This document shows, one piece after another, positions 14,842 to 64,000 of a stretch of DNA of 64,000 bases. The DNA comes from a virus: positions 1 through 64,000 of IMG/VR virus record IMGVR_UViG_3300044959_000303; one strand, 5' to 3'. Position numbers and translations under genes: made by a program. The notes beneath the pieces are model-generated. The model ran no database searches, was not told the origin of the DNA, and worked only from the letters and a program-made list of their open reading frames with translations. Positions within the stretch are counted from its first letter, which is position 1. Each line of letters begins with the position of its first letter.

Positions 14842-14844
14842 TTT

Positions 14845-15117: not shown

Positions 15118-15307
15118 GATTATCTCTCTTTTTTACTATATTTATATATTGTAGTGTAATATCGACGGTTACCAGAAAACATAATCGCACGAGAAAATTT
15201 CAATTGAAAAAATTATGGAAAAATATGAATTGTTTCTGTAAAAGTTACATCAATTCGAGAAGAAATTGAAAACATTCGATTTCATTGAAACATGATTTTT
15301 CAATTTT

Positions 15308-16141
15308 TCATATTTTCGAGGTTTTTACGAAATTATCCAGAGCAATCAATTTTTTCAGAATATCTTCGAGGCAAGACAGATAAATCATGTTTTTTCCATC
15401 AGATGGTGCATTTTCGGGATCATTGTGAACTTCCATGAAAATGCCAGCAACACCCAAAGCTACTGCTGCCTTTGCCAATGGATAGACCATTTCTCTGTCA
15501 CCACTGCTTTTTTTGCCATCTTTTCCCGGCATTTGTACACTATGAGTGGCATCGAAAATCAGAGGATATCCGAATCTTTTGACAATTTCCATTGCCTTGA
15601 AATCATTTACAAGATAATTGTAACCGAACATCGTGCCTCTCTCACAAATAATCAGTTTTTTGTTGTAATTTGTAATTTTTTCTATGATTCCTTCAACTTC
15701 ATAAGGACTTATGAATTGTCCTTTTTTTACCATTATCGTTTTGTCGGTTTTTGCGGCGGCAATCAAAAGATCTGTTTGCCTGCAGAGAAAAGCAGGTATT
15801 TGTAAAATATCCACCACTTTTGCAACTTTGTCACATTGTTCTGGTAAGTGAACATCCGTTATGATTTTTATGTCAGGATAATCTTCTTTCAATTTAGAAA
15901 ATATTTCCAAACCTTTTTCCAGACCAACTCCTCTTTTCGAATAAAGAGAAGTTCTGTTGGCTTTGTCGAAACTTGTTTTGAATATGAAATTGGCCGACAA
16001 TTTGTCACATATTTTTCTGATTTCTTCATACATGGTGAAAACATGCAATTCGCTTTCGATTTGACATGGACCTAACATGAAAATAATTGTTCGATCGTTC
16101 GATATCGATAAATTGTTCAGATAAATTGTTCTGTTTGGCAT
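15308..16141 (-). CDS. kdsA: 3-deoxy-D-manno-octulosonate 8-phosphate (KDO8P) synthase
   Basis: GPCQIES, SFDKANRTS, QIPAFLCRQTDL, KKGQF, ERGTMFGY, FDATHSVQMPG, APSDG. Confidence 0.95.
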   Translation of the reverse strand: MPNRTIYLNNLSISNDRTIIFMLGPCQIESELHVFTMYEEIRKICDKLSANFIFKTSFDKANRTSLYSKRGVGLEKGLEIFSKLKEDYPDIKIITDVHLPEQCDKVAKVVDILQIPAFLCRQTDLLIAAAKTDKTIMVKKGQFISPYEVEGIIEKITNYNKKLIICERGTMFGYNYLVNDFKAMEIVKRFGYPLIFDATHSVQMPGKDGKKSSGDREMVYPLAKAAVALGVAGIFMEVHNDPENAPSDGKNMIYLSCLEDILKKLIALDNFVKTSKI

Positions 16142-16165
16142 TTTTTGTATTTCTTTTTTACATTT

Positions 16166-17563
16166 CTAGTCGAAATATCTGAAAAATATTGTAAAACTTG
16201 GTGAAGCCAAATTGACGAAACCACTGCCATCTTTGTCTGCTGCTCTCAAAGTTCCATAAACCGCAAAACCGATTACGGAATTGTTTGCCCACGTTGTAAA
16301 GAAATCACGTGATGGACTGCTTCCTTCATCATAGTCTGTCTGATGAGCAAGAAGTATTTCATCACCTACCGAATAACTGCCATATCCCATTTTACACAAA
16401 GCATATGCATGATAAATTTTGGGAACATTTGGTAATCCATGTGCATAGGTTATGCTGCTGTTGTTTGGAATGTTGAACTCGGGACTTTGATATTTGGTCA
16501 ATGTGTTTCCTATTGCTATATCTTTCCACGCGAGACCATCGAAATATTCCAATTTTCCCGTATCTGTATTGAATCTTATCATTCCTTGTTCGGCTGGTGG
16601 TCTTTGTGCTGTTGTTCCTTTTGGAAGTTTGAAAAATCCATTACTGCTTACTTCGACATCGGATTTGATTACTGTTTTGTTGCTTTCCAGAATCATTCTG
16701 CTGGTATTTGCTATCCGAAATTCCAAGTTGTTTCCAAAAGTGTTCATAACCGCTGAACTTGTAAACGTAATATTTTTCACATTGTCGGAAAATGTCAAAC
16801 CGGATTCGATTCCTTGATGAAAATTGGGAGATAATCCCAAAGTTTCTGTAGTGTTGTCTTTTTTTACATAATTTACCGAATTGAGTGTGACCGAGTTTAC
16901 ATCGGAGTCACTGAAAGCAGCTATCAGTTTTCCGTTGACTTCTATTATGGCCAATTCGAAATTCGGAGCAGTATTTTTGTGTATTCCATATCTTGTTTTG
17001 CTTCCGGGATTGTTATTTGTTATTGTCAAAGGATACCAACCTTCTCCGATTATGTTGTTTATTCTTACATAAAGTTCTCTTTCGGTTTCATTGTACCACA
17101 ATGTTCCGGAAGGAGGAATGGGTGTAGGAACAGTTGCAGATCTTATCAGTCCTCCGACCTGTTTCCAACTTGTTCCGACTTTTATATAAAATTTTTCTTC
17201 TTTGGAAGTGTTCACGAAAAAGGATTTTCCATCTGCAAGACCGGCAGGACTCGGCAATGTTGCTCCAACGTCGATCAAAGTCAAAATATCATCCCAACCT
17301 GTTCCATTGTATATCTTTATCGTAACATCGGAACCCGGTGTAGCATCCGTGCGAGCCCAGATTTGTCCTTTTACGGGATTTGGTGGAGGATTCAAGCCTG
17401 CAAAATTTTCGAGAATATGATAAAAATTTTCGAGAATAATTTCACCATAATTTTCCTGTTTTTTGCCGACAAGTTTTATATCCAGACTTGTAGAATCTAC
17501 CGTTTTGTCCAATACGGTAATTGCCGAATTGATTCCCTGAAAACTGTTTACTGTATATGGCAT
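16166..17563 (-). CDS. Baseplate/tail-fibre connector-like structural protein, paralogue 1
   Basis: N-terminal YGE...ENFYHILENFAG..PP.NPVKGQIW and a LPKGTTAQRP...GMIRFNTDT module. Confidence 0.75.
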   Translation of the reverse strand: MPYTVNSFQGINSAITVLDKTVDSTSLDIKLVGKKQENYGEIILENFYHILENFAGLNPPPNPVKGQIWARTDATPGSDVTIKIYNGTGWDDILTLIDVGATLPSPAGLADGKSFFVNTSKEEKFYIKVGTSWKQVGGLIRSATVPTPIPPSGTLWYNETERELYVRINNIIGEGWYPLTITNNNPGSKTRYGIHKNTAPNFELAIIEVNGKLIAAFSDSDVNSVTLNSVNYVKKDNTTETLGLSPNFHQGIESGLTFSDNVKNITFTSSAVMNTFGNNLEFRIANTSRMILESNKTVIKSDVEVSSNGFFKLPKGTTAQRPPAEQGMIRFNTDTGKLEYFDGLAWKDIAIGNTLTKYQSPEFNIPNNSSITYAHGLPNVPKIYHAYALCKMGYGSYSVGDEILLAHQTDYDEGSSPSRDFFTTWANNSVIGFAVYGTLRAADKDGSGFVNLASPSFTIFFRYFD

Positions 17564-19196: not shown

Positions 19197-19231
19197 TTTG
19201 TATTCTCTTGCCTTTTTGTTTTATCTATTTT

Positions 19232-32289: not shown

Positions 32290-32304
32290 CTTTTTTTTTC
32301 TTTA

Positions 32305-35934: not shown

Positions 35935-35961
35935 TTTTCACGCCTTGTACTCATGAATCGA

Positions 35962-36378
35962 TTATCTCGTATTATCTATTTTATTTTCAATATTTCGAAT
36001 AAATCGCGCAAACAATGAACCAACTTCGTTGAATGGCAGAAATTTCAGATTCAAATTCACCGTTATTCCATATTCTTCTTCGTTTACATCGATGCTGACA
36101 ATTTCGACGCGAGGATCGAACTCTGCAATGTTTTTTATATCATTTACAATTCGGTCTCGTACACTTTGTGTAAATGGTTCGAAAAGAAGATCGTGTATTA
36201 TGGAACCAAATTCGGGATTCATGATTCTTTCACCTTTTTTCGTGAAAAGGTGATTCAATATATCTCTTTTTACCAATTCGATATCGTACAAACGTGTTCG
36301 AGGAATATTTCGCTCGACTGTAGAAAAACCAACATAGATTTTTTCTTTTTTTATATTGAAATTCTTTTTTATGGTCAT
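35962..36378 (-). CDS. Baseplate wedge subunit (gp25-like)
   Basis: DILNHLFTKKGERIMNPEFGSII.DLLFEP, FDPRV. Confidence 0.9.
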   Translation of the reverse strand: MTIKKNFNIKKEKIYVGFSTVERNIPRTRLYDIELVKRDILNHLFTKKGERIMNPEFGSIIHDLLFEPFTQSVRDRIVNDIKNIAEFDPRVEIVSIDVNEEEYGITVNLNLKFLPFNEVGSLFARFIRNIENKIDNTR

Positions 36379-36503
36379 GAAACTGTTTCTGTTTCTGGAA
36401 AAATTTGTCGAAAATATTTATTTTGAAAAATAAAAATCATACTATTTGAAATTATTCGAAAAAATGAAATTGAACGAAAGAAATTGAAAAAAAAATTTTT
36501 TTT

Positions 36504-38675: not shown

Positions 38676-38701
38676 CGCAGAAAAAACCTTTCTATATCAT
38701 A

Positions 38702-40870
38702 TCAAGCAAAATCTCTCTGTGGAAAAATATATTTTTTATCCAAAAGTCCCTGCATGTATTCTTCGTCTTCTTTTTTTGTTTCATCGATTTCTCCAAGCAA
38801 AAGATTTACATCTATGAATGGATTTCTTCTGCAGGAAAGAGTCTGGGTGAAATTTCCACCGGAAAAAGAATGTTTGACTTGAACAACAGCATATACTCCA
38901 TTGAAAACATTTTTGGATTTGAGAACGACATTTCCATTTTCATCGATTTCCGAGGGTACCTTGAATGTAATCAGCAAATTTTCAATTCCTGTCGAATATA
39001 TGGCAAGACTTTTGTTTTCTTCGGGATTCGTGTTCAACCATTCTTCGAACCCATTTATTGGTGGAATATCTCTCGGTGTTCCCAACCAATAAGGATCACC
39101 TCGAATCGTCAAATTGATTTCGATAAGATTCTGACCATATATCTGTTCGAGAAGTGCAACGGAAAAGGATTTGCCTCTCGGATTGATTGTTTCCACGAGT
39201 CTTTCGTTTTCTGTTGGATCGAATCTTTTGCTTGTATCTACATTTATTGGAATATCGGCGTCGAGACTTTCGATGTTGGCAAGCGAAATGTCTTCTATCG
39301 ATATTTTTTTCACCTTTCGAACTCTTCCTTCTTCCTGTTTTTGAAAATTTTGCATATCGACATTTGTTCTTCTTTCGGTTCTTCTTTCGAAATCTGTTGT
39401 ATTCAAACCGAAAATACTTCGATTGTTGGGATCTTTCATCAAAGAATCCAATTCTCTTTCAACTCTTCTTCCCAATTCCACGTTTCCGAACAATTTTCCC
39501 AATTCGGAGTTTGTCATGATATTGTCTTTTTGTTCGATGACAGTTGTTGTTGCAAGATTTGTCGTCTGATTGCCAGCATAGAGAGGAAGAGCAGCTTTGT
39601 AGAGAGCATCGAAGCGAAGATCGAAATCCAGAATTTCCGTATTCAATCCGGTGAAAATATAGTTGTATCTTTTTCTCAATCTTCCAGATTCGAGAACTTC
39701 CAGAAGATTTTCTATCATTTTGTCTTTCTGTTTCTTTATTACAGGTTCGAGTTGTTTCGTGGTTCCAATACCAAACTGATTGGTTTGTGGAACAACAATA
39801 TATTCGATTTCCCGATTGTAATCTCCTCTTTCGATATCATATGGATTGTCTTCTCTTATCGATACTTTTGTTTCCAACCAGAAATATGCAGTATCGAATT
39901 TGTTGTCCGAAGCCGTCGAACTGGAAGAAGAATTTCTCAGAAGAATTTTCTGTCCTTCTTCTGTATTGACAAACAATTCTTTCAAAAGAGTTTCCAATGT
40001 TTCTCCCTTGGGAACCGTTATGTTTTTCACCACTGTTTCTGTCGGTTCCTCTTTTCTTATCTGATCTTTGTAAGGATCACTCGTGATTTTCCATTTTCTT
40101 GGATTCAAATTTTCATTTCCTATTATATCACCGAATTTTTCGGGAAAACTCAAAACTTTTATACGATAGAGATTTCTTGGTTTGCCGTTTTGAATTTCCT
40201 GTTTTTCCAATTCTTTCACAAATTGATCCAGAATTTCTCCAATCGTACTTCCTTTCAAGGTGACACTATTGGACAAAGATTGATAATTGTCTGCAAAAGC
40301 CAATTCATTGTATGTAACTGCTGTTATTTCGTAAACAGAACCGCCTGCATCGAGTTTTACCTTGATATCTTGCAAAACCAGACGAAAAATCCAACGTGTA
40401 TGTGTCATGTTGTTTTCGATGATTCTCGAAGGATTTCCATTTTCATCATATCCTTTGAATTCTATTACCAGAAAATAAGGAATACGTATCCAGTTTCTCA
40501 ATCCCAGTTCTTTTGCTGCCAAAATAATTCTGTCGATAAGGGACAAACCTCCTTGTTCTTTTATGGTAAAACTGAAATTTGTCGCGGTACTGAAACCTGT
40601 AACCGGATTCGGAGAAACGAGACCGGTAATTTCCAGATTGTCGAGATTGAAAGCTGTTGTCGCTGTTTCGGCAATTGTAAAAATATTGGCATCATTACGA
40701 AGAAAAGCTTTGTAACCTTCTCGCAGATAATTTGCCTGAGTTGTCATGTCAGTCATGAAAAATTTTATGTAATAATTGTAATTGTTCATCATTGACAGAA
40801 CATTTTCCTGCCAGTTCGTTCTGCCTCTGAGTTTCGAAATTCTTCTCAGCTTGCTCTTTTCGTTGATCAT
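38702..40870 (-). CDS. Baseplate hub protein (gp27-like by position)
   Basis: YNYIFTGLNTEILDFD, LTIRGDPYWLG, GVY.VVQVKHSFSGGNFTQTL. Confidence 0.65.
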   Translation of the reverse strand: MINEKSKLRRISKLRGRTNWQENVLSMMNNYNYYIKFFMTDMTTQANYLREGYKAFLRNDANIFTIAETATTAFNLDNLEITGLVSPNPVTGFSTATNFSFTIKEQGGLSLIDRIILAAKELGLRNWIRIPYFLVIEFKGYDENGNPSRIIENNMTHTRWIFRLVLQDIKVKLDAGGSVYEITAVTYNELAFADNYQSLSNSVTLKGSTIGEILDQFVKELEKQEIQNGKPRNLYRIKVLSFPEKFGDIIGNENLNPRKWKITSDPYKDQIRKEEPTETVVKNITVPKGETLETLLKELFVNTEEGQKILLRNSSSSSTASDNKFDTAYFWLETKVSIREDNPYDIERGDYNREIEYIVVPQTNQFGIGTTKQLEPVIKKQKDKMIENLLEVLESGRLRKRYNYIFTGLNTEILDFDLRFDALYKAALPLYAGNQTTNLATTTVIEQKDNIMTNSELGKLFGNVELGRRVERELDSLMKDPNNRSIFGLNTTDFERRTERRTNVDMQNFQKQEEGRVRKVKKISIEDISLANIESLDADIPINVDTSKRFDPTENERLVETINPRGKSFSVALLEQIYGQNLIEINLTIRGDPYWLGTPRDIPPINGFEEWLNTNPEENKSLAIYSTGIENLLITFKVPSEIDENGNVVLKSKNVFNGVYAVVQVKHSFSGGNFTQTLSCRRNPFIDVNLLLGEIDETKKEDEEYMQGLLDKKYIFPQRDFA

Positions 40871-40881
40871 AATTTTTCTTT

Positions 40882-41175: not shown

Positions 41176-41229
41176 GAATTGATTCCTTTCTCGTAAATTG
41201 TTTTTTCGTAATGAATTTTCATATAACTT

Positions 41230-42685: not shown

Positions 42686-43132
42686 ATGAAAAAAATCGAT
42701 ATAATTGTAGAAAAACTCGAAAATGCAAAAGATATATATTTACCGGAATATCAAACTGAAGGTGCTTCGGGAGCAGATGTGAGAGCTGCAGAAGACACGA
42801 TATTGGAACCAAATGAAGTCAAAGCGATTTCAACCGGTCTTCGTCTGGAAATTCCATATGGTTATGAAATTCAGGTAAGACCAAGAAGTGGTCTGGCTTT
42901 GAAACACAAGGTTACGGTTTTGAATGCTCCCGGTACGATCGACAGTGATTATCGTGGAGAATTGAAAATACTTCTTGTCAATTTCGGAAAAGAAAACTTT
43001 TTCATCAAACGTGGCGAGAGAATTGCTCAACTGGTCGTATCTCCAGTAACAAAAGCAAATTTTATCGAAGGAAAAGTAAATTTCGATACAAAAAGAAATT
43101 CCGGTGGATTTGGTTCTACAGGAACTTCATGA
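42686..43132 (+). CDS. dut: Trimeric dUTPase
   Basis: ASGADV, QVRPRSGLA, APGTIDSDYRGE, GERIAQL, RNSGGFGSTG. Confidence 0.95.
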   Translation: MKKIDIIVEKLENAKDIYLPEYQTEGASGADVRAAEDTILEPNEVKAISTGLRLEIPYGYEIQVRPRSGLALKHKVTVLNAPGTIDSDYRGELKILLVNFGKENFFIKRGERIAQLVVSPVTKANFIEGKVNFDTKRNSGGFGSTGTS

Positions 43133-43194
43133 ATTTTTTTTTTCGATTATCGAAAAATTTTTTTTTTCAAAATAACGACAAAAAAGGTCGGAAA

Positions 43195-43965
43195 ATGGAT
43201 AGAAAAAATGACAATTTTCGAAACAGGAGAAAAAGAAAAACAAGAAATTATCTCAACAACAACGATCTGCTCGAAGAAATTTCCAAAAGCAAATACACTT
43301 TTTGTTCCGTGAAAAATGACAATGAAAATTACAAAAAATATGATATTGTTCTCGAAAAAAAGGAACAACTTTGTTCGGCAATTTTTTTCGAGGTTCTGGA
43401 AGAAAAAGAAAAACTTCATGGAAAAAAATTTCAAAGAAGTTCCATAGTCATAAGAGTCATGACCGATGAACATATTCCCGAAGAATATTCTTTCGAACAT
43501 CGAGGAAGAAAAAACAAAGAAAAAAAATTGAATTTCGATCCATTCAAACATTACATCCTGAATGATGAAGGAGAAATAGAAGAAGTATTGAGATCACATT
43601 GGAAGGGTACAATAGAAGATGGTGAATTCAGTATGACACATGGATACATTACGGAAAATCTCGGAAAAATGATAATTCTTCTCGTGGACAGATTTGCACA
43701 GAAATCCTCTTTTCGAGGATATTCTTGGGTAGAAGACATAAAAGGAAAAGCAACATTGCATCTTCTGGAATCTGTTTTGAAATTTCGGGAAGTGAAATCG
43801 GAAAATCCCTTTGCCTATTTTACTACAATAATAACAAATTCGTTTCGTCATACATTGAATCAGGAACATAGAAACATAGAAATCAAGACAAAGTTGTCAC
43901 AACAACAGAACCCGGCATTTCAAACATACGAACAACAAGCCAAGCAAGATGTCAGTGGAAATTGA
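43195..43965 (+). CDS. Late-transcription sigma factor (T4 gp55-like)
   Basis: NYLNNNDLLEEI, FRGYSW.ED, SENPFAYFTTII; adjacent to gp47/gp46. Start moved from 43129 to the ATG at 43195. Confidence 0.75.
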   Translation: MDRKNDNFRNRRKRKTRNYLNNNDLLEEISKSKYTFCSVKNDNENYKKYDIVLEKKEQLCSAIFFEVLEEKEKLHGKKFQRSSIVIRVMTDEHIPEEYSFEHRGRKNKEKKLNFDPFKHYILNDEGEIEEVLRSHWKGTIEDGEFSMTHGYITENLGKMIILLVDRFAQKSSFRGYSWVEDIKGKATLHLLESVLKFREVKSENPFAYFTTIITNSFRHTLNQEHRNIEIKTKLSQQQNPAFQTYEQQAKQDVSGN

Positions 43966-43968
43966 CAA

Positions 43969-45015
43969 ATGAAAAGATTATTCGATAGAGCAATTGTTTT
44001 CGGAGATATACACTTCGGTAACAAGAACAACAGTTCCATATTCAATGATGATTGTGAAGAATATATCGATTGGCTTCTGAAAGTAAAAGACAAGGTAAAA
44101 GCAGACACGTGCATATTTTTGGGAGATTGGTTTCACAACAGAAGATTCGTAAACGTACAGACGCTCGATTACAGTATGAGAAATCTCGAAAAATTGAATT
44201 CCGCTTTCGATCAGATTTTCATGTTGATGGGAAATCACGATCTGTATTACAAGGAAAGAAGAGATATAAGTTCTCTCAATCTTGCAAAAAATTATTCGAA
44301 TGTTGTATTGTTCGACGAAATTCGGGAAATTGGTGATTGTCTTTTTGTTCCTTGGCTGATAAACGACGAATGGAAGAAAATCAAGGAATATTCCAAAAAA
44401 TATGTTTTCGGACATTTCGAGATTCCAAGATTTCTGATGAATTCCTATGTCGAAATGCCAGATAAGAATGAACTCAACGAAGAGCATTTTTCCCGAAACG
44501 AATTCGTTTTTTCCGGACATTTTCACAAAAGGCAAAGAAGAGGAAACATTCTATACATCGGAAATTGTTTTCCGCACAATTATTCGGACATGGATGATAC
44601 GGAAAGAGGATTGGTAATTCTGGAGTGGAACAAGGAACCAAAATTCGTAAATTGGAAAAACATGCCATTTTATACCAAAATCAATCTGTCGGAAGCATTG
44701 AACAAAGAATTCGCAAATATTGTCAGAAAAAAGACTTATATGAAACTTCTGATAGATATCGATCTGTCTTTCGAAGAATCTCTGTATCTGAAAGAAAAAT
44801 TGATGGAAGATTACAAATGCAGAGAGGTTCAGTTGATACCAATGAATTTGAAAACAGATGAATTGAATTTCGAAAATTTCGAAGTGAAAACGGTAGATCA
44901 GGTTGTAATCGAAGGATTGAAAAATCTGAAAAACGTCGAATCGAATTACAATGTGGATTTTCTGATAGAAATATATGAAGAATTGAATATAGATGATGAA
45001 AGAAAAAATGTATAG
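43969..45015 (+). CDS. Recombination nuclease subunit (gp47/Mre11/SbcD-like)
   Basis: GDIHFG, FLGDWFH, GNHD, GHFE, SGHFH metallophosphoesterase motifs. Confidence 0.9.
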   Translation: MKRLFDRAIVFGDIHFGNKNNSSIFNDDCEEYIDWLLKVKDKVKADTCIFLGDWFHNRRFVNVQTLDYSMRNLEKLNSAFDQIFMLMGNHDLYYKERRDISSLNLAKNYSNVVLFDEIREIGDCLFVPWLINDEWKKIKEYSKKYVFGHFEIPRFLMNSYVEMPDKNELNEEHFSRNEFVFSGHFHKRQRRGNILYIGNCFPHNYSDMDDTERGLVILEWNKEPKFVNWKNMPFYTKINLSEALNKEFANIVRKKTYMKLLIDIDLSFEESLYLKEKLMEDYKCREVQLIPMNLKTDELNFENFEVKTVDQVVIEGLKNLKNVESNYNVDFLIEIYEELNIDDERKNV

Positions 45016-45060
45016 AATTCATCGAAGAACATATTCGAAAAAAATATGGATGAATAAATT

Positions 45061-46869
45061 ATGATAAAATTCAAGAAAATGACTCTGAAAAATTTTCTGA
45101 GTATAGGTAACAGAGAACAGGTCGTTTTTCTGGATAACAATTCCTTGACCTTGATTTTGGGAGAAAATGCCGATATTGGTTCGGGTATTGGATCAGGTGC
45201 TAGAAACGGAGTTGGAAAATCTGCAATAATTCAAGCATTGTGTTATGCAATATACGGAATTCCACTTACTCAGATAAAAAGAGACAATCTGATAAACAAG
45301 ATCAACAGAAAAAATATGGTGGTAACATTGGAATTCGAAAAAAATGGAGTCGAATATTTCATAGAAAGAGGAAGAAAACCGAACTTTCTGAATTTCTATA
45401 TCGACAAAAGAAAAATAAACAATGTACCTGAAACCGAAGATGATGAAAATTTCAATTCGAATTCTTCGGAAGAAACCGAAGGTGATTTTCGCTGGACTCA
45501 AAAAGAAATTCAGAAAGTTATCGGTATAAGTATCAATCTGTTTCGTCATTTGATTGCTCTCAATACTTTCACCACGCCTTTTCTATCCATGCCGGTATCT
45601 CAACAAAGACAGATTGTGGAAGAACTGTTCGGAATTACCCGATTGTCGGAAAAAGCAGAACTTCTGAAATTGAAAATCAAGGAAACAAAAGATCGAATAA
45701 GAGAAGAGGAAATAAAAATCGAGTCGATAAAGACAAGTAACGAAAGAATTCGAAAATCGATAATGGAATTGGAAAACAGATCGAGAATCTGGCAGAAAAA
45801 TCTGAGTGAAACGTTGAAAAATCTCGAAAAAGAAATTTCTCTGATGGAAAATTTGAATATAGAAGAAGAAATACGAATTCACGAAGAAAAGCAGAAGTAT
45901 TTGAAAAATCGGGAATTGTTGGAAAAAACAAAAAGCAATTTGAATCATGTCGAAAAAAATATTCTCGAAAATGAAAAAAGATTGAAAAAATCGGAAAATT
46001 ACAGAAACAGAATTTGTGAAGAAAAATGTCCCATGTGTGGTCAGAAACTTCACAACAAGGATACCTTGCTCGAAAATCTGGATAGGGAAATTTTCGAACT
46101 GAAGAAAAATCTCGAAGAAAATTACAGCAAAAAAAGAAAATATGAAAAAGAAATCGAGCAATTGTTCATGGATGAAAATATTCTCAATGAAAAAACATTC
46201 TACAAGGAAATTTCCGATGCATACAATCACAGAATAATATTGCAGAAATTGAAAGAAAGTATGAAAGAAAAAATGAATCAGAAAAATCCTTACGAAGAAC
46301 AGATAAAAAGTCTCGAAGAAACAGGAATACAGGAAATCGATTTCACGACTTTGAACAATTTGACATATCGAAAAAATCATCAGGAACTTCTGTTGAAACT
46401 TCTGATGAACAAAGATTCTTTCATAAGAAAGAAAATAATGGATCAAAGCCTGAATTATCTGAATTCGAGATTGAAATATTACACAGAATCACTTCAACTT
46501 CCGCATCAGGTCAAATTTCTCAATGATTTGAGTGTGGAAATCAACGAGCTTGGAGTAGACTTCGATTTCGACAATTTGAGTCGTGGTGAAAAAACCCGTT
46601 TGATACTTGCTTTGAGTTGGGCATTTCGTGATGTTTACGAAAGTATGAATGACAATATCAACATCATGTTTATCGACGAATTGATAGACAATGGTCTCGA
46701 TCAGTTGGGAGTCGAGTCTGCTGTTCTTCAACTCAAGAAAATATCGACAGAAAACAGAAAAAATATTTTTCTGATTTCGCATCGTGAAGATCTGACAAAT
46801 CAGGTCGAAAACATATTGTATGTGATCAAGGAAAATGGATTTACGAATATCTTGACGGAAGAAACATGA
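45061..46869 (+). CDS. Recombination ATPase subunit (gp46/Rad50/SbcC-like)
   Basis: Walker A RNGVGKS, zinc hook CPMCGQ, LSRGE signature, FIDE Walker B, ISH. Confidence 0.92.
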   Translation: MIKFKKMTLKNFLSIGNREQVVFLDNNSLTLILGENADIGSGIGSGARNGVGKSAIIQALCYAIYGIPLTQIKRDNLINKINRKNMVVTLEFEKNGVEYFIERGRKPNFLNFYIDKRKINNVPETEDDENFNSNSSEETEGDFRWTQKEIQKVIGISINLFRHLIALNTFTTPFLSMPVSQQRQIVEELFGITRLSEKAELLKLKIKETKDRIREEEIKIESIKTSNERIRKSIMELENRSRIWQKNLSETLKNLEKEISLMENLNIEEEIRIHEEKQKYLKNRELLEKTKSNLNHVEKNILENEKRLKKSENYRNRICEEKCPMCGQKLHNKDTLLENLDREIFELKKNLEENYSKKRKYEKEIEQLFMDENILNEKTFYKEISDAYNHRIILQKLKESMKEKMNQKNPYEEQIKSLEETGIQEIDFTTLNNLTYRKNHQELLLKLLMNKDSFIRKKIMDQSLNYLNSRLKYYTESLQLPHQVKFLNDLSVEINELGVDFDFDNLSRGEKTRLILALSWAFRDVYESMNDNINIMFIDELIDNGLDQLGVESAVLQLKKISTENRKNIFLISHREDLTNQVENILYVIKENGFTNILTEET

Positions 46870-46930: not shown

Positions 46931-47224
46931 ATGACAGACATAACATTTCTGGAAATACAAAGAAACGAACCTTTTCACAAAATTTACAATTACAAGATTT
47001 ATACGAATGTAAAAGTATATTGGACTCCAGAATACGAAAACTGGCATAGCGAAGAAGACAGAAAATGGATGAAAAAAATCGAGTGTCATCTCAAGGCCAA
47101 ATTTGGAAACAATATCAAATTTCAAGGTGCAGTAATTTACTGTAAAGATCTTGACGAAGCTTTTCTCGCAAGACTTCTGTGTGGCGAAAAAATTGTCAAA
47201 GTGGAAAAGGCAATCATGATATAG
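46931..47224 (+). CDS. Hypothetical protein (97 aa)
   Basis: ORF downstream of gp46 with an upstream AAGGA. Confidence 0.5.
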   Translation: MTDITFLEIQRNEPFHKIYNYKIYTNVKVYWTPEYENWHSEEDRKWMKKIECHLKAKFGNNIKFQGAVIYCKDLDEAFLARLLCGEKIVKVEKAIMI

Positions 47225-47738
47225 ATGAAAGTTTCTGTTCTATGATTTTTCTGTGTGTTTCGAGAAAAGAAGAGAGAGAAACAATGATGTATTTTTCCTG
47301 ATTGTATTTGTAAATCATGTAATTTCCAGAAAAAATTTCGAAAGAAAAAAATTTTTCCGGAACTATCGAAAACCAACCCCGATTTGTTATCTTGAAACAT
47401 ATGAACCAGACATTTTTTTCATGTACGATATCGAGACATTGTCGAATCCATGAATCGATCGTGGAATTGTTGCCATTGAAAATTTTGAGAAAATTGATGT
47501 TTTTGTAATTTTTGCATTCTATGAGAAGATTTTCGAATTTATCGGGAGGAATGATATCTCCCTTGAGAACAACTTTCTGTGAATCGTCGATTTTCTTTTC
47601 TCTTTTGATGTTTTTTCCACCGAGAAAAGATCCGCTGTTCGGAACTCGAAGAAAAGGTTTTTCGAAAAAATTCGTCAAAAGAGAACAAAGTTCTCTTTCT
47701 CCTCTTTTTCCTTTTTCTTTACTTTTTCTTCCAGTCAT
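47214..47738 (-). CDS. Holliday junction resolvase-like PD-(D/E)XK nuclease
   Basis: SKEKGKRGERE, RVPNSG, GDII, IECK. Confidence 0.75.
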   Translation of the reverse strand: MTGRKSKEKGKRGERELCSLLTNFFEKPFLRVPNSGSFLGGKNIKREKKIDDSQKVVLKGDIIPPDKFENLLIECKNYKNINFLKIFNGNNSTIDSWIRQCLDIVHEKNVWFICFKITNRGWFSIVPEKFFSFEIFSGNYMIYKYNQEKYIIVSLSSFLETHRKIIEQKLSSIS

Positions 47739-49093: not shown

Positions 49094-49226
49094 ATTTGCT
49101 CCTTTATGTGATTTTTCACGAATCGTAAAATGATGAAATCATTTTTCATAAAATGATATTATTATGTTTCGGCATTAAATATATATTGAATTATTTGAAA
49201 AAAATTTACAAAAAAGAAAAAAACCA

Positions 49227-53851: not shown

Positions 53852-55543
53852 ATGGTAAAATACAGAAAAAAAATTCAAGGAAATTACATTCAACAGGCAA
53901 AAAATTTTTCACGGACAAATTTTTTGAATGCAAGCAATGATCTTGGTTTCAAATGGCAGAGTTATCTGCCTCTCATATATGCCGGACAACCTAAAAGAAG
54001 AGAAAGATACAATCAATACGATATAATGGATGCCGATCCGGAAATCAATGCTTCTCTCGATATCATTGCCGAATTCTGTACACAAACAGATCAACCGAAC
54101 AATTTGCCATTTCGTATAAACACTTTCGAGTCCATGTCGGACACCGAAATGGAAATTATCAGAAGAAATTTGATAAAATGGACCAGAATCAACGAATTCG
54201 AAAGAAGATTGTTCAATATTTTTCGAAATACCATAAAATATGGCGACCAGATATTCATAAAACATCCGAAAACCAAAAAATGGTTATGGATAGATCCGGC
54301 AAGAGTAGCATCGATAATTGTCAATTCGGCAAAAGGAAAAAAGCCCGAGTTTTATGTTGTCGAAGGGCTCGATGTAAATCTCGAAACTCTTGTAGCAACA
54401 ACTCCTCCGCCTGCATATCAGCAGACGACCGGCCTGGTGGCAAGATCTCCCGGTCCGGTAACTTACTCTTATCCCAGAATGGATTCGACATTGGGAAGAT
54501 ATACTGCACAAGCTACGCAACCAGCATTTATTGCAGCAGAAAACATCGTTCATATTTCATTGTCGGATGGCATGGACAACAATTGGCCTTTTGGCAATTC
54601 CATTCTCGAATCAGTGTACAAAGTTTTCAAACAGAAGGAACTTCTGGAAGACTCGATAATAATATATCGTGTACAAAGAGCACCGGAAAGAAGAGTTTTC
54701 TATATCGATGTCGGTGATATGTCACCGGCAATGGCAAATCAATATATCAATCGAATCAAAAATCAGATACATCAGAGAAGAATTCCTACCTTCAATGGTG
54801 GTGGTGAAAGTGTAATGTCAACGGCTTACAATCCATTGTCGATACTCGAAGATTACTTTTTCGCACAAAGTGCAGACGGTAGAGGATCCAAGGTCGAAGT
54901 TCTTCCGGGCGGAGATCAACTTGGACAAATCGACGATCTGATCTATTTCGACAGAAAATTGAGAAGAGGATTGAGAATTCCAAACGCCTATCTTCCCGGA
55001 TCGACAGAAGAAGGCGGATCTTATAGTGATGGCAAAGTCGGAACAGCATTCATACAGGAATTTCGTTTCAACAAATACTGTATGAGATTACAACAGGCAA
55101 TAATTCAAAAATTCGATGAGGAATTCAAAAACTATATGAAAAGTTCCGGTGTAGAATTGAATTTCGATTCTTTTGAAATTCAATTTCACGAACCACAGAA
55201 TTTCTCTCGTTATCGTCAAATTGAAATCGATAGTGCACAAGCTTCCGTGTTTACGTCACTTGCAGATATTCCGTATTTGAGCAAGAGATTTCTTATGAAA
55301 AGATTTCTGAATCTTTCCGATGAAGAAATTTTCGAAAACGAGAGACTTTGGGAAGAAGAAAATGAAATCAAGGATGAAGATGATATCGACGATTTGAATG
55401 TGAATTTGCCGGACGTAGGTATACATTCGACAGATATGAATTATTCTGACAATCTGGAAACAGAAGAACCGGAAGAAGACGTAGAAGAAGTTCCCGAAGA
55501 AGAAAAAGTCGAAGAAGAAATAAAAAGTTCTTTTGAAAAATGA
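53852..55543 (+). CDS. Portal protein (T4 gp20-like)
   Basis: LLEDSIIIYRVQRAPERRVFYIDVG, EDYFF, GSKVEVLPGG. Confidence 0.95.
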   Translation: MVKYRKKIQGNYIQQAKNFSRTNFLNASNDLGFKWQSYLPLIYAGQPKRRERYNQYDIMDADPEINASLDIIAEFCTQTDQPNNLPFRINTFESMSDTEMEIIRRNLIKWTRINEFERRLFNIFRNTIKYGDQIFIKHPKTKKWLWIDPARVASIIVNSAKGKKPEFYVVEGLDVNLETLVATTPPPAYQQTTGLVARSPGPVTYSYPRMDSTLGRYTAQATQPAFIAAENIVHISLSDGMDNNWPFGNSILESVYKVFKQKELLEDSIIIYRVQRAPERRVFYIDVGDMSPAMANQYINRIKNQIHQRRIPTFNGGGESVMSTAYNPLSILEDYFFAQSADGRGSKVEVLPGGDQLGQIDDLIYFDRKLRRGLRIPNAYLPGSTEEGGSYSDGKVGTAFIQEFRFNKYCMRLQQAIIQKFDEEFKNYMKSSGVELNFDSFEIQFHEPQNFSRYRQIEIDSAQASVFTSLADIPYLSKRFLMKRFLNLSDEEIFENERLWEEENEIKDEDDIDDLNVNLPDVGIHSTDMNYSDNLETEEPEEDVEEVPEEEKVEEEIKSSFEK

Positions 55544-56791: not shown

Positions 56792-56905
56792 AATAAAAGT
56801 ACAAGAACATTATTATTTTTGAAAAAATAAGTAAAAAATATACTTTTTTTGACGAAAAACATTAAATATAAATGTATAAAACCATATTCACTAGCGGAGT
56901 AAAAA

Positions 56906-57988
56906 ATGAGTAAAAGCAAATTAGAAACAATCATGAATCTTTTAGCTGAAGGCAGGGAAGACGAAGCATCCACCATACTACACGAGTGGATAGTTGAAAA
57001 AAGCAGGGAAATTCACAAAAAATTGATCGAAGAAGACGAATCGATGGAAGAACATGATTATGATGATATCGATGAAAAAATCGAAAATCTCAGAGCTGAG
57101 ATGCACGATGAAATAGAAAAATTGAAAGATGAGTTGGAAGATATTCTTGCAAAAGATCATGATGAAGAAATGAATTCCGAAGAAGGAGAAGAAGTTGAAG
57201 GCGAAGAAGTTGAAGGCGAAGAAGATTATTCTGATGTCGACGATATTGCAGACAAAATGACTTCCGATGATGAAGAAATGAATTCCGAAGAAGGCGAAGA
57301 AGGCGAAGAAGGCGAAGAAGTTGAAGACGAAGAAGATTATTCTGATGTCGACGATATTGCAGACAAAATGACTTCCGATGATGAAGGAATGGATTCCGAA
57401 GAAGATGAACGTGAAGAAGATGAACGTGAAGAAGATAAAGAAGATGAAAAACGTAATATGGTGGAACGTGTTCACAAACATGAAAAAGAAATGAAAAATA
57501 TCGAAGAAACAACAAAAAAACCTGAAGAAGACGAAATCGACGAACTTTTGAAAACGATAGAAAAAGAATTGAATGAAAAAGATGACGATGAAAGTGAAGT
57601 CGATACTTCATCTCTTACTCCGGAAGAAATGGAAAAATTCCTGAAAGAATTGAATATTTCCGAACTGGAGGAAGCTTATGAAATGTTGAATGTAAATTTT
57701 CATCCAACCGAGGGTGAAGTTGGAAGCGGAAAAAAGAATGCCGTTGGAAATACACAAAGTCCTCTTCCTCATATGAGTGCCGATGAAAGATTGAATGTAT
57801 CGAATCGTGGAATTCGGTACAAACAATCTTCTCACGTTGGTTTCAACAGAGAACCTGCACCAAAAGCAGAGATTTTCAGTCAGGCGAAGAAATCGAAAAG
57901 TGTAGTCAAAAGTGCCTCTGAATTTTACAGTCCGACAAAAGGCAATTCAGATGCCATTTTGACAAAAGATTATTCTGACGAAAAATAA
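56906..57988 (+). CDS. Acidic prohead core / scaffold-like protein
   Basis: HEWIVEKSREIH N-terminus, extremely D/E-rich; between portal and protease. Confidence 0.65.
   Translation: MSKSKLETIMNLLAEGREDEASTILHEWIVEKSREIHKKLIEEDESMEEHDYDDIDEKIENLRAEMHDEIEKLKDELEDILAKDHDEEMNSEEGEEVEGEEVEGEEDYSDVDDIADKMTSDDEEMNSEEGEEGEEGEEVEDEEDYSDVDDIADKMTSDDEGMDSEEDEREEDEREEDKEDEKRNMVERVHKHEKEMKNIEETTKKPEEDEIDELLKTIEKELNEKDDDESEVDTSSLTPEEMEKFLKELNISELEEAYEMLNVNFHPTEGEVGSGKKNAVGNTQSPLPHMSADERLNVSNRGIRYKQSSHVGFNREPAPKAEIFSQAKKSKSVVKSASEFYSPTKGNSDAILTKDYSDEK
57161..57400 (+). repeat. ~108-111-bp acidic coding duplication
   Basis: DEEMNSEEG...EEDYSDVDDIADKMTSD occurs twice plus a partial third copy. Confidence 0.85.
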
Positions 57989-60175: not shown

Positions 60176-61396
60176 ATGCGAGAACTATTATCTGAATCGA
60201 AATGGAAAGCCACGAAAGAAGCACTTCTCGATGGCTTGACCGGAAACAGAAGAAAAGTTATGGACGTCTGCCTTGAAAATACAAGAAAAGATATGATTTC
60301 TCGGGCAGCTCTTTATGGTGCTGGTGTTCCTCTTATGGAAACAGCAACTGCTGGTGCAACAGCATCGGGCAATATCGCAACATTGAACAAGGTCATTCTA
60401 CCAGTCATTCGACGCGTCATGCCTACGGTCATTGCCAATGAAATCATTGGTGTTCAACCAATGACCGGACCTGTTGCCCAGATTCACACACTCAGAGTTC
60501 GTTATGCCGATACCGTTCCAGCAGCTGGTGGTGGTGTAACGGCAGGTACCGAAGCTCTTGGACCATTCGACATAGCACGTTACTACTCGGGTAACGAAAA
60601 TCCCGCAAGTCCAAAAGCTGCACCAACATCTACACTTGAAGGTACACCCGGCAATCGTCTGAGCATTCAGATTCTGAAAGAAACCGTCGAAGCCAGAAGC
60701 CGTCGTCTTTCTGCTCGTTGGACTTTCGAAGCAGCACAAGATGCCATGGCACAGCAGGGTATCGACATAGAGGCTGAGATCATGGCAGCCCTTGCTCAGG
60801 AAATTACGGCAGAAATCGATCAGGAAATTCTGACTTCGCTTCGTGCTCTTCCAACCACGGCATTGACCTATGATCAGGGTCTGGTCAGTGGTACAGCAAC
60901 ATTCGTTGGTGACGAACATGCTGCTTTAGCAGTTCTCATCAACAGACAGGCCAACCTGATTGCAGCCCGTACCCGTAGAGGTGCTGGTAACTGGGTAATT
61001 GTCAGCCCGACAGCTCTCACGATACTGCAGAGCGCAACAACTTCGACATTCGCACGTACAACCGAAGGTGTTTTCGAAGCACCAACAAACACCAAGTTCG
61101 TAGGTGTTTTGAACAGCAGCATGAGAGTCTATGTCGACCAATATGCTTCGGACAATACTCCAGTTCTGGTTGGTTATAAAGGTCCCGGTGAAGTAGATGC
61201 GGCTGCCTACTACTGCCCATACATTCCTCTGACAAGCAGCGGTATCGTACCAGATCCAAGAACCTTCGAGCTCGTTGTATCCTTCCTTACACGTTATGGA
61301 TACATCGAACTCAAAAACACTGCATCATCGCTCGGTAATGCAGCTGACTATCTTGGATTGATCAATATCAATACCGCAAATCTGAAGTTCTTGTAA
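60176..61396 (+). CDS. Major capsid protein (T4 gp23-like)
   Basis: VIRRVMPTVIANEIIGVQPMTGP, RRLSARWTFEAAQD, ITAEIDQEI, YYCPYIPL, TRYG; GAAGGAG RBS. Confidence 0.97.
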   Translation: MRELLSESKWKATKEALLDGLTGNRRKVMDVCLENTRKDMISRAALYGAGVPLMETATAGATASGNIATLNKVILPVIRRVMPTVIANEIIGVQPMTGPVAQIHTLRVRYADTVPAAGGGVTAGTEALGPFDIARYYSGNENPASPKAAPTSTLEGTPGNRLSIQILKETVEARSRRLSARWTFEAAQDAMAQQGIDIEAEIMAALAQEITAEIDQEILTSLRALPTTALTYDQGLVSGTATFVGDEHAALAVLINRQANLIAARTRRGAGNWVIVSPTALTILQSATTSTFARTTEGVFEAPTNTKFVGVLNSSMRVYVDQYASDNTPVLVGYKGPGEVDAAAYYCPYIPLTSSGIVPDPRTFELVVSFLTRYGYIELKNTASSLGNAADYLGLININTANLKFL

Positions 61397-61479: not shown

Positions 61480-62757
61480 TCACTTTTTTACCCATAATTC
61501 GTATCCTGCATCGAAAATGACATCTTTGCAATTCCCGAACTTTCTTCTTTTTCTCGTTACATAATCCGTATACCATTTTTTCGGGGGAATTTCGGCAAGT
61601 TTCACAAAATCATTTTGCCGAAGAAATTCATCCCCGGGATGAAATCGGTTATCGATGAGAAGTTTTTCCGATTTCATGTTCAGGAAGAAAAAATTTCGAT
61701 CCAGAAATCCTCGAATTGTTTTTTTCATTCGTTTTTTCGAAAAATTCCATTCGTCTTCGAATATTTGCAGAAGAAGAATGTTTCGATTTTTTGCCTCGAT
61801 ATATTTTTTGTAATGGTACAATTCGTCTTTCTGATTACAGCAGGAATGCCAGTACAAACCATGAAATTCGATTCCGATACCATATTCCGGAATCAGTATG
61901 TCTATTTCGTGTTTTTCGAGAATGTTTCTTTTTCTCGATTCTGTTTTCAGATTTCTTTCGGAAAGAAATTTACGAATTTCCACTTCGTACGAAGAAAAAT
62001 ATTTTTTTCTGAGATTGTATTCGACGGCTCTTCTTTGAACGGAACATATGTTGACATTGAAATATTTCGAAATTTCTCTTTCATTTCCATGAAATTTTTC
62101 ATATATTTCCGGAAAGAAATTTTCCCAATCATCGAGGTTCGAAATGTGTTTTTTTGCCGTATTGTATACACCATATTTTTTCAGATTTGTCGATTTTATT
62201 CTGTTTTTTATTTTTTCACTTTTTGTCGGATTGTCCACTCCATATTTTTCCAGAATTTTTTTTCTTGCCCGATTTCTTATTTCCTCGCTTTTCATTGGAT
62301 TGTCGATACCATATCGTTTCAACCATGTTTTTTTCTTTTTGTCATGAACATTTCTGTTTTGTGATGGATTTTCGACACCATATTTCTTCATCAATGTTTC
62401 TTTTATTCTGCTTTTTACAATATCCGAAGAAAAAGGATTGGCAACTCCGTATTTTTTCAAATTCGTGTTCTTTATTTTTTCTTTTATGATCTGTTTGCAT
62501 TCTTCACAGTTGTTCACGTTTTCCGAATGGTAACCTTTCGGCAAACTCAGGAATTTTCTTTTGTAACCATGCGAACAGTAGGGATTTTCTTCGAAAAGAT
62601 AGTAGTGAATTTTTTCGACGAAATCGACGTGTTCTGGAAATTTCCAGAAATCTTGAATATCTTTTCTGTACTCTTCCATATTTTTCATTTTTGTCACAAA
62701 AACATTGACTCGATATTTCGAATAAAATTCATGTATTTCCCGATAATATTTTTTCAT
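61480..62757 (-). CDS. Free-standing homing-type endonuclease (KYGV.NP repeats plus Vsr/PD-(D/E)XK-like domain)
   Basis: Repeated T.LKKYGV.NP; EIDILIPEYGIGIEFHGLYWHS; LLQIFEDEW. Confidence 0.75.
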   Translation of the reverse strand: MKKYYREIHEFYSKYRVNVFVTKMKNMEEYRKDIQDFWKFPEHVDFVEKIHYYLFEENPYCSHGYKRKFLSLPKGYHSENVNNCEECKQIIKEKIKNTNLKKYGVANPFSSDIVKSRIKETLMKKYGVENPSQNRNVHDKKKKTWLKRYGIDNPMKSEEIRNRARKKILEKYGVDNPTKSEKIKNRIKSTNLKKYGVYNTAKKHISNLDDWENFFPEIYEKFHGNEREISKYFNVNICSVQRRAVEYNLRKKYFSSYEVEIRKFLSERNLKTESRKRNILEKHEIDILIPEYGIGIEFHGLYWHSCCNQKDELYHYKKYIEAKNRNILLLQIFEDEWNFSKKRMKKTIRGFLDRNFFFLNMKSEKLLIDNRFHPGDEFLRQNDFVKLAEIPPKKWYTDYVTRKRRKFGNCKDVIFDAGYELWVKK

Positions 62758-62832
62758 GTTTCTTCGATTTTTTTTCGATTCATTGTAAAAACAATTCGAA
62801 AAAACAACAATTTTTTCGAATTGTTTTTTTTT

Positions 62833-64000
62833 TCAGAATTTTCGAATCCACAATTCGTATCCTGCATCGAAAATCACATCTTTGCAATTCCCGAACTTTC
62901 TTCTTTTTCTCGTTACATAATCCGTATACCATTTTTTCGGGGGAATTTCGGCAAGTTTCACAAAATCATTTTGCCGAAGAAATTCATCCCCGGGATGAAA
63001 TCGGTTATCGATGAGAAGTTTTTTCGAGGTTGTATCGATCGTATCGATGAAGAAGAAATTTCGATAGAGAAACGCTTTCAATATTTCCCGAATTTTTTCC
63101 CGAGAAAAATTCCATTCGTCTTCGAATATTTGCAGAAGAACAATATTTCGATTTTTTGCTTCCATATATTTCCTGTAATGATAGAATTTGTCTTTTTTGT
63201 TGTTGAAAGAATGCCAGTACAATCCGTGAAACTCGATTCCGATACCATATTCCGGAATCAGTATGTCTATTTCGCTTCCATTCAGAATATTCCGGTTTCG
63301 AAATTCGAAACTTATTTCGTTTTCAGCGAGAAATTCACCAATTTCTTTTTCATAGGAAGAAAACGAAACAAATTTTTCCCTGAGACCACATTTCAAAGCT
63401 CTTTTGCGAATCGTGGAAATATCGACAGAGAAATATTTCGAAATTTCTCTTTCGTTACCATGAAATTTCTCGTAAATTTCCGAAAAAGAATTTTCCCAAT
63501 CATCGAGATTCGAAATGTGTTTTTTCACGTGATTGTCAGTTCCGTATTTCTGCAACCATGTTTTTTTTCTTTTTTCGAGAATTTCGATACAAGAAAAAGG
63601 ATGTTCCGTTCCGTATTTTTTCAACCATGTTTCTTTTCTTTTCTTTCGAAAGAATTCGAAACACGAAGGATTTTCGACTCCATATCTTTCTTTTGTCGTT
63701 TTCGTTTTCCTGTTTTTCACAGTGTCCAGAAGAGAAGGATTTTCGACTCCATATTTTTTTTGTAATGTTTCTCTTATTCTTTTTTTCACGATTTCCGAAG
63801 AAAATGGATTTTTACAACCGTATTTTCGAATATTCGTTTTTTCTTTTCTGTTTTTCACTTCCTGTGAAGAAGCCGGATTTTTGCAACCATATTTTTTCAA
63901 ATTTGTCCTTTCTCTTTTTTCTTCGATGATTTTCTTGCATTTTTCACATTTTTTGACCTGTTCCGACAGATAACCTTTTTTCAAACCATGAAAGGTTCTT
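62833..64000 (-). CDS. Paralogous homing-type endonuclease, partial (5' end beyond the window)
   Basis: Same motifs; the frame stays open upstream of 63984 (…RTFHGLKKGY). Confidence 0.75.
   Translation of the reverse strand, partial: RTFHGLKKGYLSEQVKKCEKCKKIIEEKRERTNLKKYGCKNPASSQEVKNRKEKTNIRKYGCKNPFSSEIVKKRIRETLQKKYGVENPSLLDTVKNRKTKTTKERYGVENPSCFEFFRKKRKETWLKKYGTEHPFSCIEILEKRKKTWLQKYGTDNHVKKHISNLDDWENSFSEIYEKFHGNEREISKYFSVDISTIRKRALKCGLREKFVSFSSYEKEIGEFLAENEISFEFRNRNILNGSEIDILIPEYGIGIEFHGLYWHSFNNKKDKFYHYRKYMEAKNRNIVLLQIFEDEWNFSREKIREILKAFLYRNFFFIDTIDTTSKKLLIDNRFHPGDEFLRQNDFVKLAEIPPKKWYTDYVTRKRRKFGNCKDVIFDAGYELWIRKF

Follow-up and report, generated by a model that had tools for sequence, protein, structure and literature searches.

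The virus record IMGVR_UViG_3300044959_000303 of the IMG/VR collection, one linear contig of 107,128 bp of which the first 64 kb form the window, is almost devoid of the degenerate tetranucleotide YTAR (Y, pyrimidine; R, purine; the words TTAA, CTAA, TTAG and CTAG) and is rich in the related YCGR words. The depletion and the enrichment are coupled, are independent of reading frame and codon, are absent from the relatives of this phage and vary together between the two strains that carry them. We tentatively suggest that an undescribed enzyme system reading YYRR, phage- or host-borne, may be rewriting TpA to CpG; it could be either a nuclease directed at YTAR or a corrector of TCGA/CCGG resembling very short patch (VSP) repair.

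Between 15200 and 64000, a region of 48.8 kb, YTAR occurs 26 times (TTAA 9, CTAA 4, TTAG 8, CTAG 5), against about 207 sites expected from a second-order Markov model (Markov-2; 110, 42, 40 and 15 for the four words in that order; observed/expected ratios, O/E, of 0.08-0.32 and z of -2.8 to -9.1) and about 700 expected from dinucleotide composition (Markov-1; 385, 131, 137 and 46; O/E 0.02-0.11, z -6.6 to -20). An earlier inspection of the letters alone (the sequence-only reading) had reported this scarcity, with TTAA limited to a handful of sites in tens of kilobases; the counts bear it out and make the effect stronger than it was described. The impression that TTA and CTA are nearly always followed by a pyrimidine also agrees with the counts in this region (498 pyrimidines versus 17 purines after TTA, 97%; 190 versus 9 after CTA, 95%). 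The AT content, given there as about 70%, is actually 64%.

The scarcity is a nucleotide-level, tetranucleotide-specific pressure. In a core set of 88 genes, 200 synonymous-codon shuffles yielded O/E values of 0.03 for TTAA, 0.04 for CTAA, 0.07 for TTAG and 0.08 for CTAG (z -10 to -24), codon-order shuffles yielded 0.02-0.08, and YTAR was scarce in all three reading frames. Together with the Markov-1 and Markov-2 simulations, these shuffles exclude codon usage or TA frequency as the cause, and the outcome that had been named in advance as refuting the claim, a loss of the depletion under such controls, did not occur (shuffle O/E 0.03-0.08). YTAR is thus depleted beyond mono-, di- and trinucleotide composition and beyond codon usage, as is looked for in restriction-site avoidance. 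Core genes end in TGA 60 times, TAA 20 times and TAG eight times, and a purine precedes 25 of the 28 TAA/TAG stops, so that the formation of YTAR is avoided at stops as well. The 6.8 kb of intergenic DNA contain 13 YTAR versus 84 RTAR, 79 YTAY and 123 RTAY words, a YTAR density of 1.9/kb compared with 0.4/kb in genes. Avoidance of hidden stops in the +2 frame can be dismissed, since RT|GA junctions are common (AAT|GA 147, GAT|GA 116) and YT|GA alone is shunned, as can intrinsic curvature of the (GAAAATTTTC)n type, the spectrum having no distinct 10-11-bp peak.

The contig falls into three parts with respect to the signature:

1..4700: left contig end, with an S8 peptidase/Ig-domain structural gene and a fibre-like partial open reading frame (ORF).
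4773..14963: AT-rich island (GC ~31%) of orphan ORFs and non-coding DNA, with 43 YTAR sites and a weaker signature.
15200..64000, continuing to the contig end at 107,128: main purged domain (26 YTAR and 15 TCGA per kb within the window).

The whole 107-kb contig holds 93 YTAR sites, and 43 of them lie within the island. The sequence-only reading had called the depletion genome-wide, which describes most of the contig but not the island, and had placed its start at 15.2 kb, which does not hold because positions 1-4700 contain no YTAR at all.

The loss of YTAR is matched by a gain of YCGR. Relative to 28 related loci (34-40% GC, 0.4 Mb in total), the densities in the core were as follows:

TTAA, CTAA/TTAG and CTAG: 0.02x each.
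CTAC/GTAG, the next lowest TA word: 0.29x.
TCGA: 10.1x.
CCGA/TCGG: 4.1x.
CCGG: 3.0x.
RCGY words: 0.11-0.39x.

All four YTAR words are equally reduced, and the effect is therefore wider than single MseI- or BfaI-type sites, as had been proposed. From relatives to core, YTAR falls from 23.2 to 0.5/kb (a loss of 22.7, about 98%) and YCGR rises from 5.0 to 29.3/kb (a gain of 24.3), with the intermediates YTGR and YCAR together near-constant (36 to 30/kb) and the YYRR total conserved (60/kb in the core versus 64/kb). The TA-containing words follow a half-site series in which RTAY remains at about 1, words with one half-site at about 0.55 and full YTAR at 0.02, where two independent half-sites would predict about 0.3. 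The shift extends to symmetrised dinucleotides, with values in the core of 0.42 for TA, 1.47 for CG, 0.65 for GC, 1.45 for GA/TC and 0.74 for AG/CT versus 0.93, 0.82, 1.30, 0.87 and 1.01, respectively, in the relatives.

TCGA alone occurs 731 times between 15200 and 64000 (15/kb), an O/E of 1.75 against dinucleotides (z +18.6) and, in the core genes, of 1.97 against synonymous shuffles (z +36), and its intergenic density of 18/kb equals that in genes. The core holds 433 copies of TTCGAA, at 32x the relatives' density, and no TTTAAA, of which about 118 copies would be expected were it as dense as in the relatives. The claimed enrichment of YCGR thus stands against dinucleotides, codon shuffles and relatives, but under Markov-2 (15200-64000) it is confined to the true palindromes (TCGA 1.11, CCGG 1.59; CCGA/TCGG 0.71-0.76). 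On the sense strand CCGA (401) and TCGG (397) are balanced, so the gain is strand-symmetric. As a class, YTAR is identical with its reverse complement; equal loss of CTAA and TTAG is therefore no proof by itself of a duplex target, and strand symmetry of the loss is uninformative, yet the symmetric YCGR gain and the intergenic TCGA excess make an agent acting on duplex DNA the economical reading.

Synonymous codon choice in the core genes varies with the bases that follow. Codons that end in T and have a pyrimidine in second place are almost never followed by AA (NYT|AA, 0-3 per family). Before GA, the ratios are 7:330 for TTT:TTC, 41:227 for ATT:ATC and 17:115 for CTT:CTC, and TCA|AA versus TCG|AA stands at 5:240, but TCG is no commoner than TCA when a pyrimidine follows. 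Relative to their family share, NYC codons before GA are used 1.6-2.2x, NYG codons ~1.0-1.5x and NYA codons 0.5-0.9x; enrichment of NYC|GA without that of NYG|GA or NYA|GA means that YCGR is positively favoured, beyond the mere avoidance of T. The purge is almost wholly silent, yet it skews the amino acids that follow Phe and Ile: Phe precedes Lys/Asn in 122 cases and Glu/Asp in 306 (0.40, versus a ratio of 0.91 in relatives), and Met, Trp, Arg, Glu and Lys, with purine-ending codons, preferentially precede Lys/Asn.

The record (28% complete according to CheckV) encodes a T4-type set comprising a gp23-type capsid protein, gp20 portal, prohead protease, gp25, gp15, tail sheath and baseplate hub, along with a VgrG-like spike, giant fibre proteins, a gp55-like late sigma factor and gp46/47, and on this gene content we assign the replicon to the T4-like/Rak2-like jumbo myoviruses. 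Its capsid protein is 76% identical to that of Sinorhizobium phage Phosso and ~66% identical to those of GAP32, CBB and PA5oct; the nearest capsids belong to a 543-kb IMG/VR contig (84%) and a metagenome contig (85%), and the genomes with the closest capsids are those of phages of 290-540 kb. The signature was found in none of 75 capsid-linked IMG/VR loci, none of 79 loci linked via the 1209-aa protein at 32305-35934, and none of 80 capsid-linked metagenome loci, including the 85%-identical one (O/E 1.1); the three sets together comprise ~235 loci. PA5oct (33% GC, Pseudomonas host) has a YTAR O/E of 0.9-1.1, Phosso 0.73-0.96, and Atu_ph07 carries 12.6 YTAR/kb, which excludes a general trait of AT-rich jumbo phages of GC-rich hosts. 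GC-rich bacterial loci retrieved as by-catch had very low YTAR with a modest YCGR excess, and no AT-rich sequence did likewise. A search of IMG/VR for contigs with TTCGAA x3 returned none with the signature among the matches listed. Given that relatives with 85% capsid identity are normal, these comparisons indicate that the signature is lineage-specific and recent.

The sole other member of the lineage found in the collections, L084, is a 16.4-kb contig from a separate metagenome, IMG 3300020567; it is 97.5% identical to positions 24775-41222 of the studied phage (G000 in this comparison) and carries the signature (9 YTAR, 230 TCGA). The two differ at 385 positions, 336 of them transitions and 49 transversions. 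In the overlap, L084 has nine YTAR sites and G000 two, with one of ten shared; that nine of ten are unshared implies fast site turnover. TCGA in G000 replaces TCAA or TTGA of L084 at 19 positions, and the reverse is seen at three. Transitions with G/C in G000 outnumber the reverse by 185:112, an excess concentrated where a purine comes after the T/C (120:59, versus 65:53 otherwise). L084 is therefore slightly less extreme in both features, and depletion and enrichment move together between the strains.

Two genes allowed the residues encoded at YCGR codons to be compared with those of relatives:

60176..61396, + strand: gp23-type major capsid protein, which places the phage and was compared with 80 relatives.
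53852..55543, + strand: gp20-type portal protein.

In the capsid gene, the encoded residue is the relatives' majority residue at 20 of 26 YCGR sites, while the residue expected of a misread YTAR is so at one of 26; in the portal gene, the encoded residue is conserved at 28 of 50 sites and the misread residue at two of 50. Modified motifs can give systematic consensus errors in nanopore sequencing, and an artefact of sequencing, of base-calling at modified bases or of assembly might in principle produce such a pattern. The conserved residues at YCGR codons and the independent carrier L084 exclude the calling of YTAR as YCGR and effectively refute the artefact as a whole.

The likeliest reading of these patterns, although a tentative one, is biased repair or conversion of T:G to C:G, that is, sequence-specific correction of T:G mismatches to C:G in a Y-T-R-R context in the manner of VSP repair. 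Such a process would push the central step of YYRR from TA through TG/CA to CG (YTAR to YTGR/YCAR to YCGR), both blocking the creation of YTAR and converting existing YTAR. Its substrates could be replication errors, deamination products and the recombination heteroduplexes of a highly recombining T4-like phage, and it would probably be tied to an enzyme recognising or modifying YCGR, with optima at TCGA and CCGG, that the host or the 72% of the genome outside the contig would encode. The enzyme, its mismatch specificity and any methylation are what we infer here. Loss of the T-variant with excess of the C-variant, the combination expected of a VSP-type process, is present in the YTAR and YCGR fold changes (0.02x and 3-10x), in the silent choices and in the 19:3 strain asymmetry. 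The coupled YCGR gain, the preference for C before GA, the dipeptide skew (of a kind that a drive-like force would produce) and the co-variation of the two strains would all be expected from T:G correction but not from avoidance alone. The path from YTAR through YTGR to YCGR put forward in the sequence-only reading is supported in the same way, by the mass balance, the silent choices (7:330 and 5:240) and the strains, but its attribution to pure trinucleotide A-to-G mutation is not.

Several observations weigh against biased T:G correction. The 50-fold purge is far stronger than the VSP effect in E. coli, and the CG effect looks multiplicative per half-site where the TA effect is strongly synergistic, so their causes could differ. 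In four-fold families, it is mainly G or A, not the transition product C, that takes the place of T before AA, and in intergenic DNA the intermediates TTGA and TCAA (87) are nearly as numerous as TCGA (122). A per-column comparison with relatives (raw pair counts are inflated by counting each relative separately) revealed no K-to-E excess, and its Q-to-R excess (12 versus 6) was mostly to AGA rather than CGR. Classical restriction-site avoidance is seen elsewhere in the genome (CTCGAG, GGCC, AGCT, GCGC). Furthermore, most ORFs of at least 110 aa were scanned against Pfam, PHROGs and NCBIfam, and the 107-kb contig was searched for families in six frames; in this 28% of the genome, neither a C5 (PF00145), N6/N4, D12 or Dam methyltransferase nor an HhH-GPD glycosylase was identified, and the Vsr model (PF03852) gave only sub-threshold matches of 13-14 bits. 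With 72% of the genome and the host outside the data, the absence of an agent from the contig says little.

Alternatively, the phage may be avoiding a nuclease, either a host restriction-modification enzyme or its own host-DNA-degrading nuclease, that cuts duplex YTAR; we regard this as possible but doubtful, with biased repair slightly ahead of it, and the two could act in combination. One-off sites (YTGR/YCAR and RTAR/YTAY) would be cut more weakly, with a small independent cost per site, and YCGR would be the only state that keeps the protein-imposed purine/pyrimidine pattern while standing two steps from the target. Four-base recognition predicts both the equal reduction of all four words and the synergy from 1.0 through 0.55 to 0.02, and avoidance would account for the loss in all frames, stop contexts and intergenic DNA, for the short life of YTAR sites (nine of ten unshared between L084 and G000), and for the under-use of Phe-Lys/Asn pairs, where neither Phe codon escapes YTAR or YCAR. 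The other avoided palindromes (CTCGAG, 0 versus ~13.6 expected, and GGCC, AGCT and GCGC) raise the prior for restriction. Degenerate 4-bp cutters exist (CviJI, RGCY; FaiI, YATR), but we know of no enzyme with YTAR specificity. An IS5-family transposase targets 5'-YTAR-3' (PMC5009759), showing that a DNA enzyme can read this word, although insertion is far too rare to purge a genome, E. coli keeps 7-14 YTAR/kb, and the contig encodes no IS5-type/DDE transposase. The scans likewise detected no restriction-modification gene and no nuclease/methylase pair in the available 28% of the genome. By itself, a nuclease does not explain the preference for NYC|GA over NYG|GA, the excess of TCGA and CCGG over dinucleotides or the loss of RCGY, and the genome tolerates ~1,000 TTGA/TCAA sites as well as 43 YTAR within a 10-kb island.

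Adaptation of an AT-rich phage to the translation system of a GC-rich proteobacterial host, with few tRNAs for TTA/CTA and an NNC|G codon-pair bias, is improbable. In its favour are the rarity of TTA (104) and CTA (29), the preference for TCG and CTG, the predominance of TGA among stops, a tRNA-Arg(TCT) for the main Arg codon AGA, the proteobacterial look of the CsgG-type and KdsA genes, and the low YTAR of GC-rich control bacteria (2 versus 22 expected in a Rudaea locus; O/E 0.19-0.35 in Pseudomonas loci). However, the neighbouring base and not the codon decides (TTA|Y 90 versus TTA|R 14; TTT|TT 190 versus TTT|GA 7), the effect survives codon-preserving shuffles and is present in intergenic DNA, and AT-rich jumbo relatives of GC-rich hosts lack it (PA5oct and Atu_ph07, above). 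A host or phage endoribonuclease or toxin cleaving YUAR in transcripts is a little less probable still. It could explain why depletion is ~5x stronger in genes than between them, and counts cannot separate a sense-strand from a duplex target, the YTAR class being self-complementary; nevertheless, it needs a second coincidence for the symmetric YCGR gain, leaves the intergenic TCGA excess unexplained, and would require an RNase with YUAR specificity, of which we know none. Of comparably low probability, and ranked just below the RNA target, is enzymatic A-to-G (A-to-I) DNA hypermutation at Y-Y-A-R, although one rule (YYAR to YYGR on both strands) would yield the whole series from YTAR through YTGR/YCAR to YCGR, transitions dominate the strain differences (336 versus 49), and the contig encodes a small protein with a cytidine/dCMP-deaminase fold (103532-103984). 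This ORF is closest to dCMP deaminases and receives no TadA call from NCBIfam, less constrained protein positions show neither a K-to-E nor an N-to-D excess, T before AA does not preferentially become C, and to our knowledge no natural DNA adenine deaminase of such a kind exists. Pure context-dependent A-to-G mutation, as the sequence-only reading had it, also fails on the half-site series, where YTAR stands at 0.02 and not at the ~0.3 that half-sites predict. The two mechanisms of that reading, a nuclease or toxin and an A-to-G process, survive as the leading candidates, and neither is proved.

Among the proteins encoded on the contig, the following were considered in the search for an agent:

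61480-62757 and 62833-64197 (the latter running past the window end), - strand: two tandem paralogous DUF7487 homing-endonuclease-like ORFs directly after the capsid gene.
47214..47738, - strand: PDDEXK_15 phage endonuclease.
103532-103984: deaminase-fold protein of 150 aa, matching dCMP/cytidine deaminase models.

The DUF7487 ORFs have sub-threshold similarity to Vsr and REase_MTES_1575 (13-16 bits), and a sequence search of the PDB with the ORF at 61480-62757 gave no match. They are excluded as the agent by homologues in relatives that lack the signature, and the PDDEXK_15 endonuclease is excluded by its conservation in PA5oct and Phosso, both without the signature. In relatives, a single DUF7487-type gene occupies this position, an example being the 'Hef-like' gene beside the PA5oct capsid gene.

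The pattern belongs, as an unusual variant, among the known oligonucleotide-skew phenomena. The scarcity of CTAG in E. coli and Salmonella has its accepted explanation in VSP repair, and recently acquired DNA is less purged there (PMC5337935), a precedent much like the island at 4.7-15.2 kb. As far as the account of Dcm/Vsr in that source goes (citing Bhagwat and McClelland 1992), the likeness lies in the depletion of T-containing CTAG with favouring of the C-containing cognate, and the process was first seen as marker effects in phage crosses. In contrast, the words here are YTAR/YCGR rather than CTWGG/CCWGG (W, A or T), the effect is ~10x stronger and affects a phage genome, and neither Vsr nor a C5 methylase is present in the available 28% of it. 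Restriction-site avoidance by phages offers a second likeness, in that short self-complementary words are removed silently beyond composition and CTCGAG, GGCC, AGCT and GCGC are avoided too. It differs in that YTAR is a degenerate class, its loss is coupled to a 3-10x gain of YCGR, dinucleotides are rewritten (TA 0.42, CG 1.47, GC 0.65) and no cognate enzyme was found in the contig.

Where phages avoid a word, the usual interpretation is that it records the restriction enzymes met by them, and this case is unusual in its degenerate class without a known cutter, its mirror-image enrichment, its shift of dinucleotides and protein sequence and its recent origin. If a nuclease is responsible, it would represent a new specificity for enzymology and phage-defence research; if repair is responsible, biased mismatch repair or gene conversion would be reshaping a viral genome far beyond the CTAG case of E. 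coli. In either case, such genomes distort composition-based host prediction and gene finding, and long false antisense ORFs are a trap for gene callers. Antisense ORFs of up to 641 aa lie opposite real genes at 38870-40795 (+), 19187-20197 (+), 45583-46446 (-) and elsewhere, probably because TTA/CTA, the antisense of TAA/TAG, is scarce. The longest is:

38870..40795, + strand: spurious antisense ORF of 641 aa, opposite the real gene at 38702-40870.

The island at 4773-14963 has 0.13-0.25x the YTAR of relatives and 7x their TCGA, with CCGG not enriched, and its large ORFs (439, 382 and 1186 aa) have no Pfam or PHROG match. This pattern fits a shorter residence in the genome or a weaker exposure to the pressure. 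YTAR sites that survive are concentrated in leaders, in the opening codons of genes and at stops, as in these examples:

56862..56945, + strand: four surviving YTAR close together, in the intergenic leader and opening codons of gene 56906-57988.
16166..16169, - strand: surviving CTAG formed by a stop codon and the preceding base.

Surviving TTAA at 49175 and 56862 share the sequence cATTAAATATA, and each lies ~45-50 nt before the start of a structural gene (49227 and 56906, respectively), perhaps as part of a late-promoter-like element whose function preserves TTAA.

Other skews accompany the signature. CTCGAG (XhoI-type) is absent from the whole contig despite 1,749 TCGA, where ~13.6 copies would be expected from CTCGA x TCGAG / TCGA, and other palindromes are depleted 2-9-fold against relatives (GGCC 0.4, AGCT 0.28, GCGC 0.11, and also ACGT and GTAC), which suggests classical restriction avoidance beside the YTAR effect. 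In 4-kb bins along the contig, TA declines from ~230 per 4 kb at 16-24 kb (tail-fibre genes) to ~80-110 at 92-107 kb, while CG rises from ~150 to ~280 and TCGA from ~50 to ~100. YTAR stays near zero throughout, and purge and CpG enrichment are thus partly uncoupled in degree.

Further genes within the main purged domain include:

43129..46869, + strand: gp55-like late sigma factor and gp47/gp46 (SbcCD-like) recombination nuclease.
42686..43132, + strand: dUTPase, a nucleotide-pool enzyme.

The gp55-like sigma factor and gp46/47 are hallmarks of a T4-like phage with recombination-dependent replication. The right-end gene of the contig had no relatives in IMG/VR or the metagenomes by which it could be extended; a DNA-polymerase query from the nearest relative retrieved only itself, and the terminase family was not found in that relative. 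The phage also carries envelope and polysaccharide genes, a CsgG-family lipoprotein and GDP-mannose 4,6-dehydratase (Gmd) amid tail genes at 67.8-72.4 kb of the contig and KdsA at 15308-16141. Gmd was uninformative on the host, its matches being at most 60% identical and scattered over many phyla; the CsgG-type and KdsA proteins look proteobacterial, with the protein atlas resolving only to Pseudomonadota. A tRNA-Lys(CTT) lies at ~85.2 kb and the tRNA-Arg(TCT) at ~102.8 kb, the latter within a mechanically called ORF (101228-103087) whose call is therefore doubtful. AGA is the main Arg codon of the phage (865 uses), which hints at a host with rare AGA use. A PAS-GGDEF-EAL protein, an enzyme of cyclic di-GMP metabolism, is encoded at 94079-95914 of the contig and is equally TCGA-rich.

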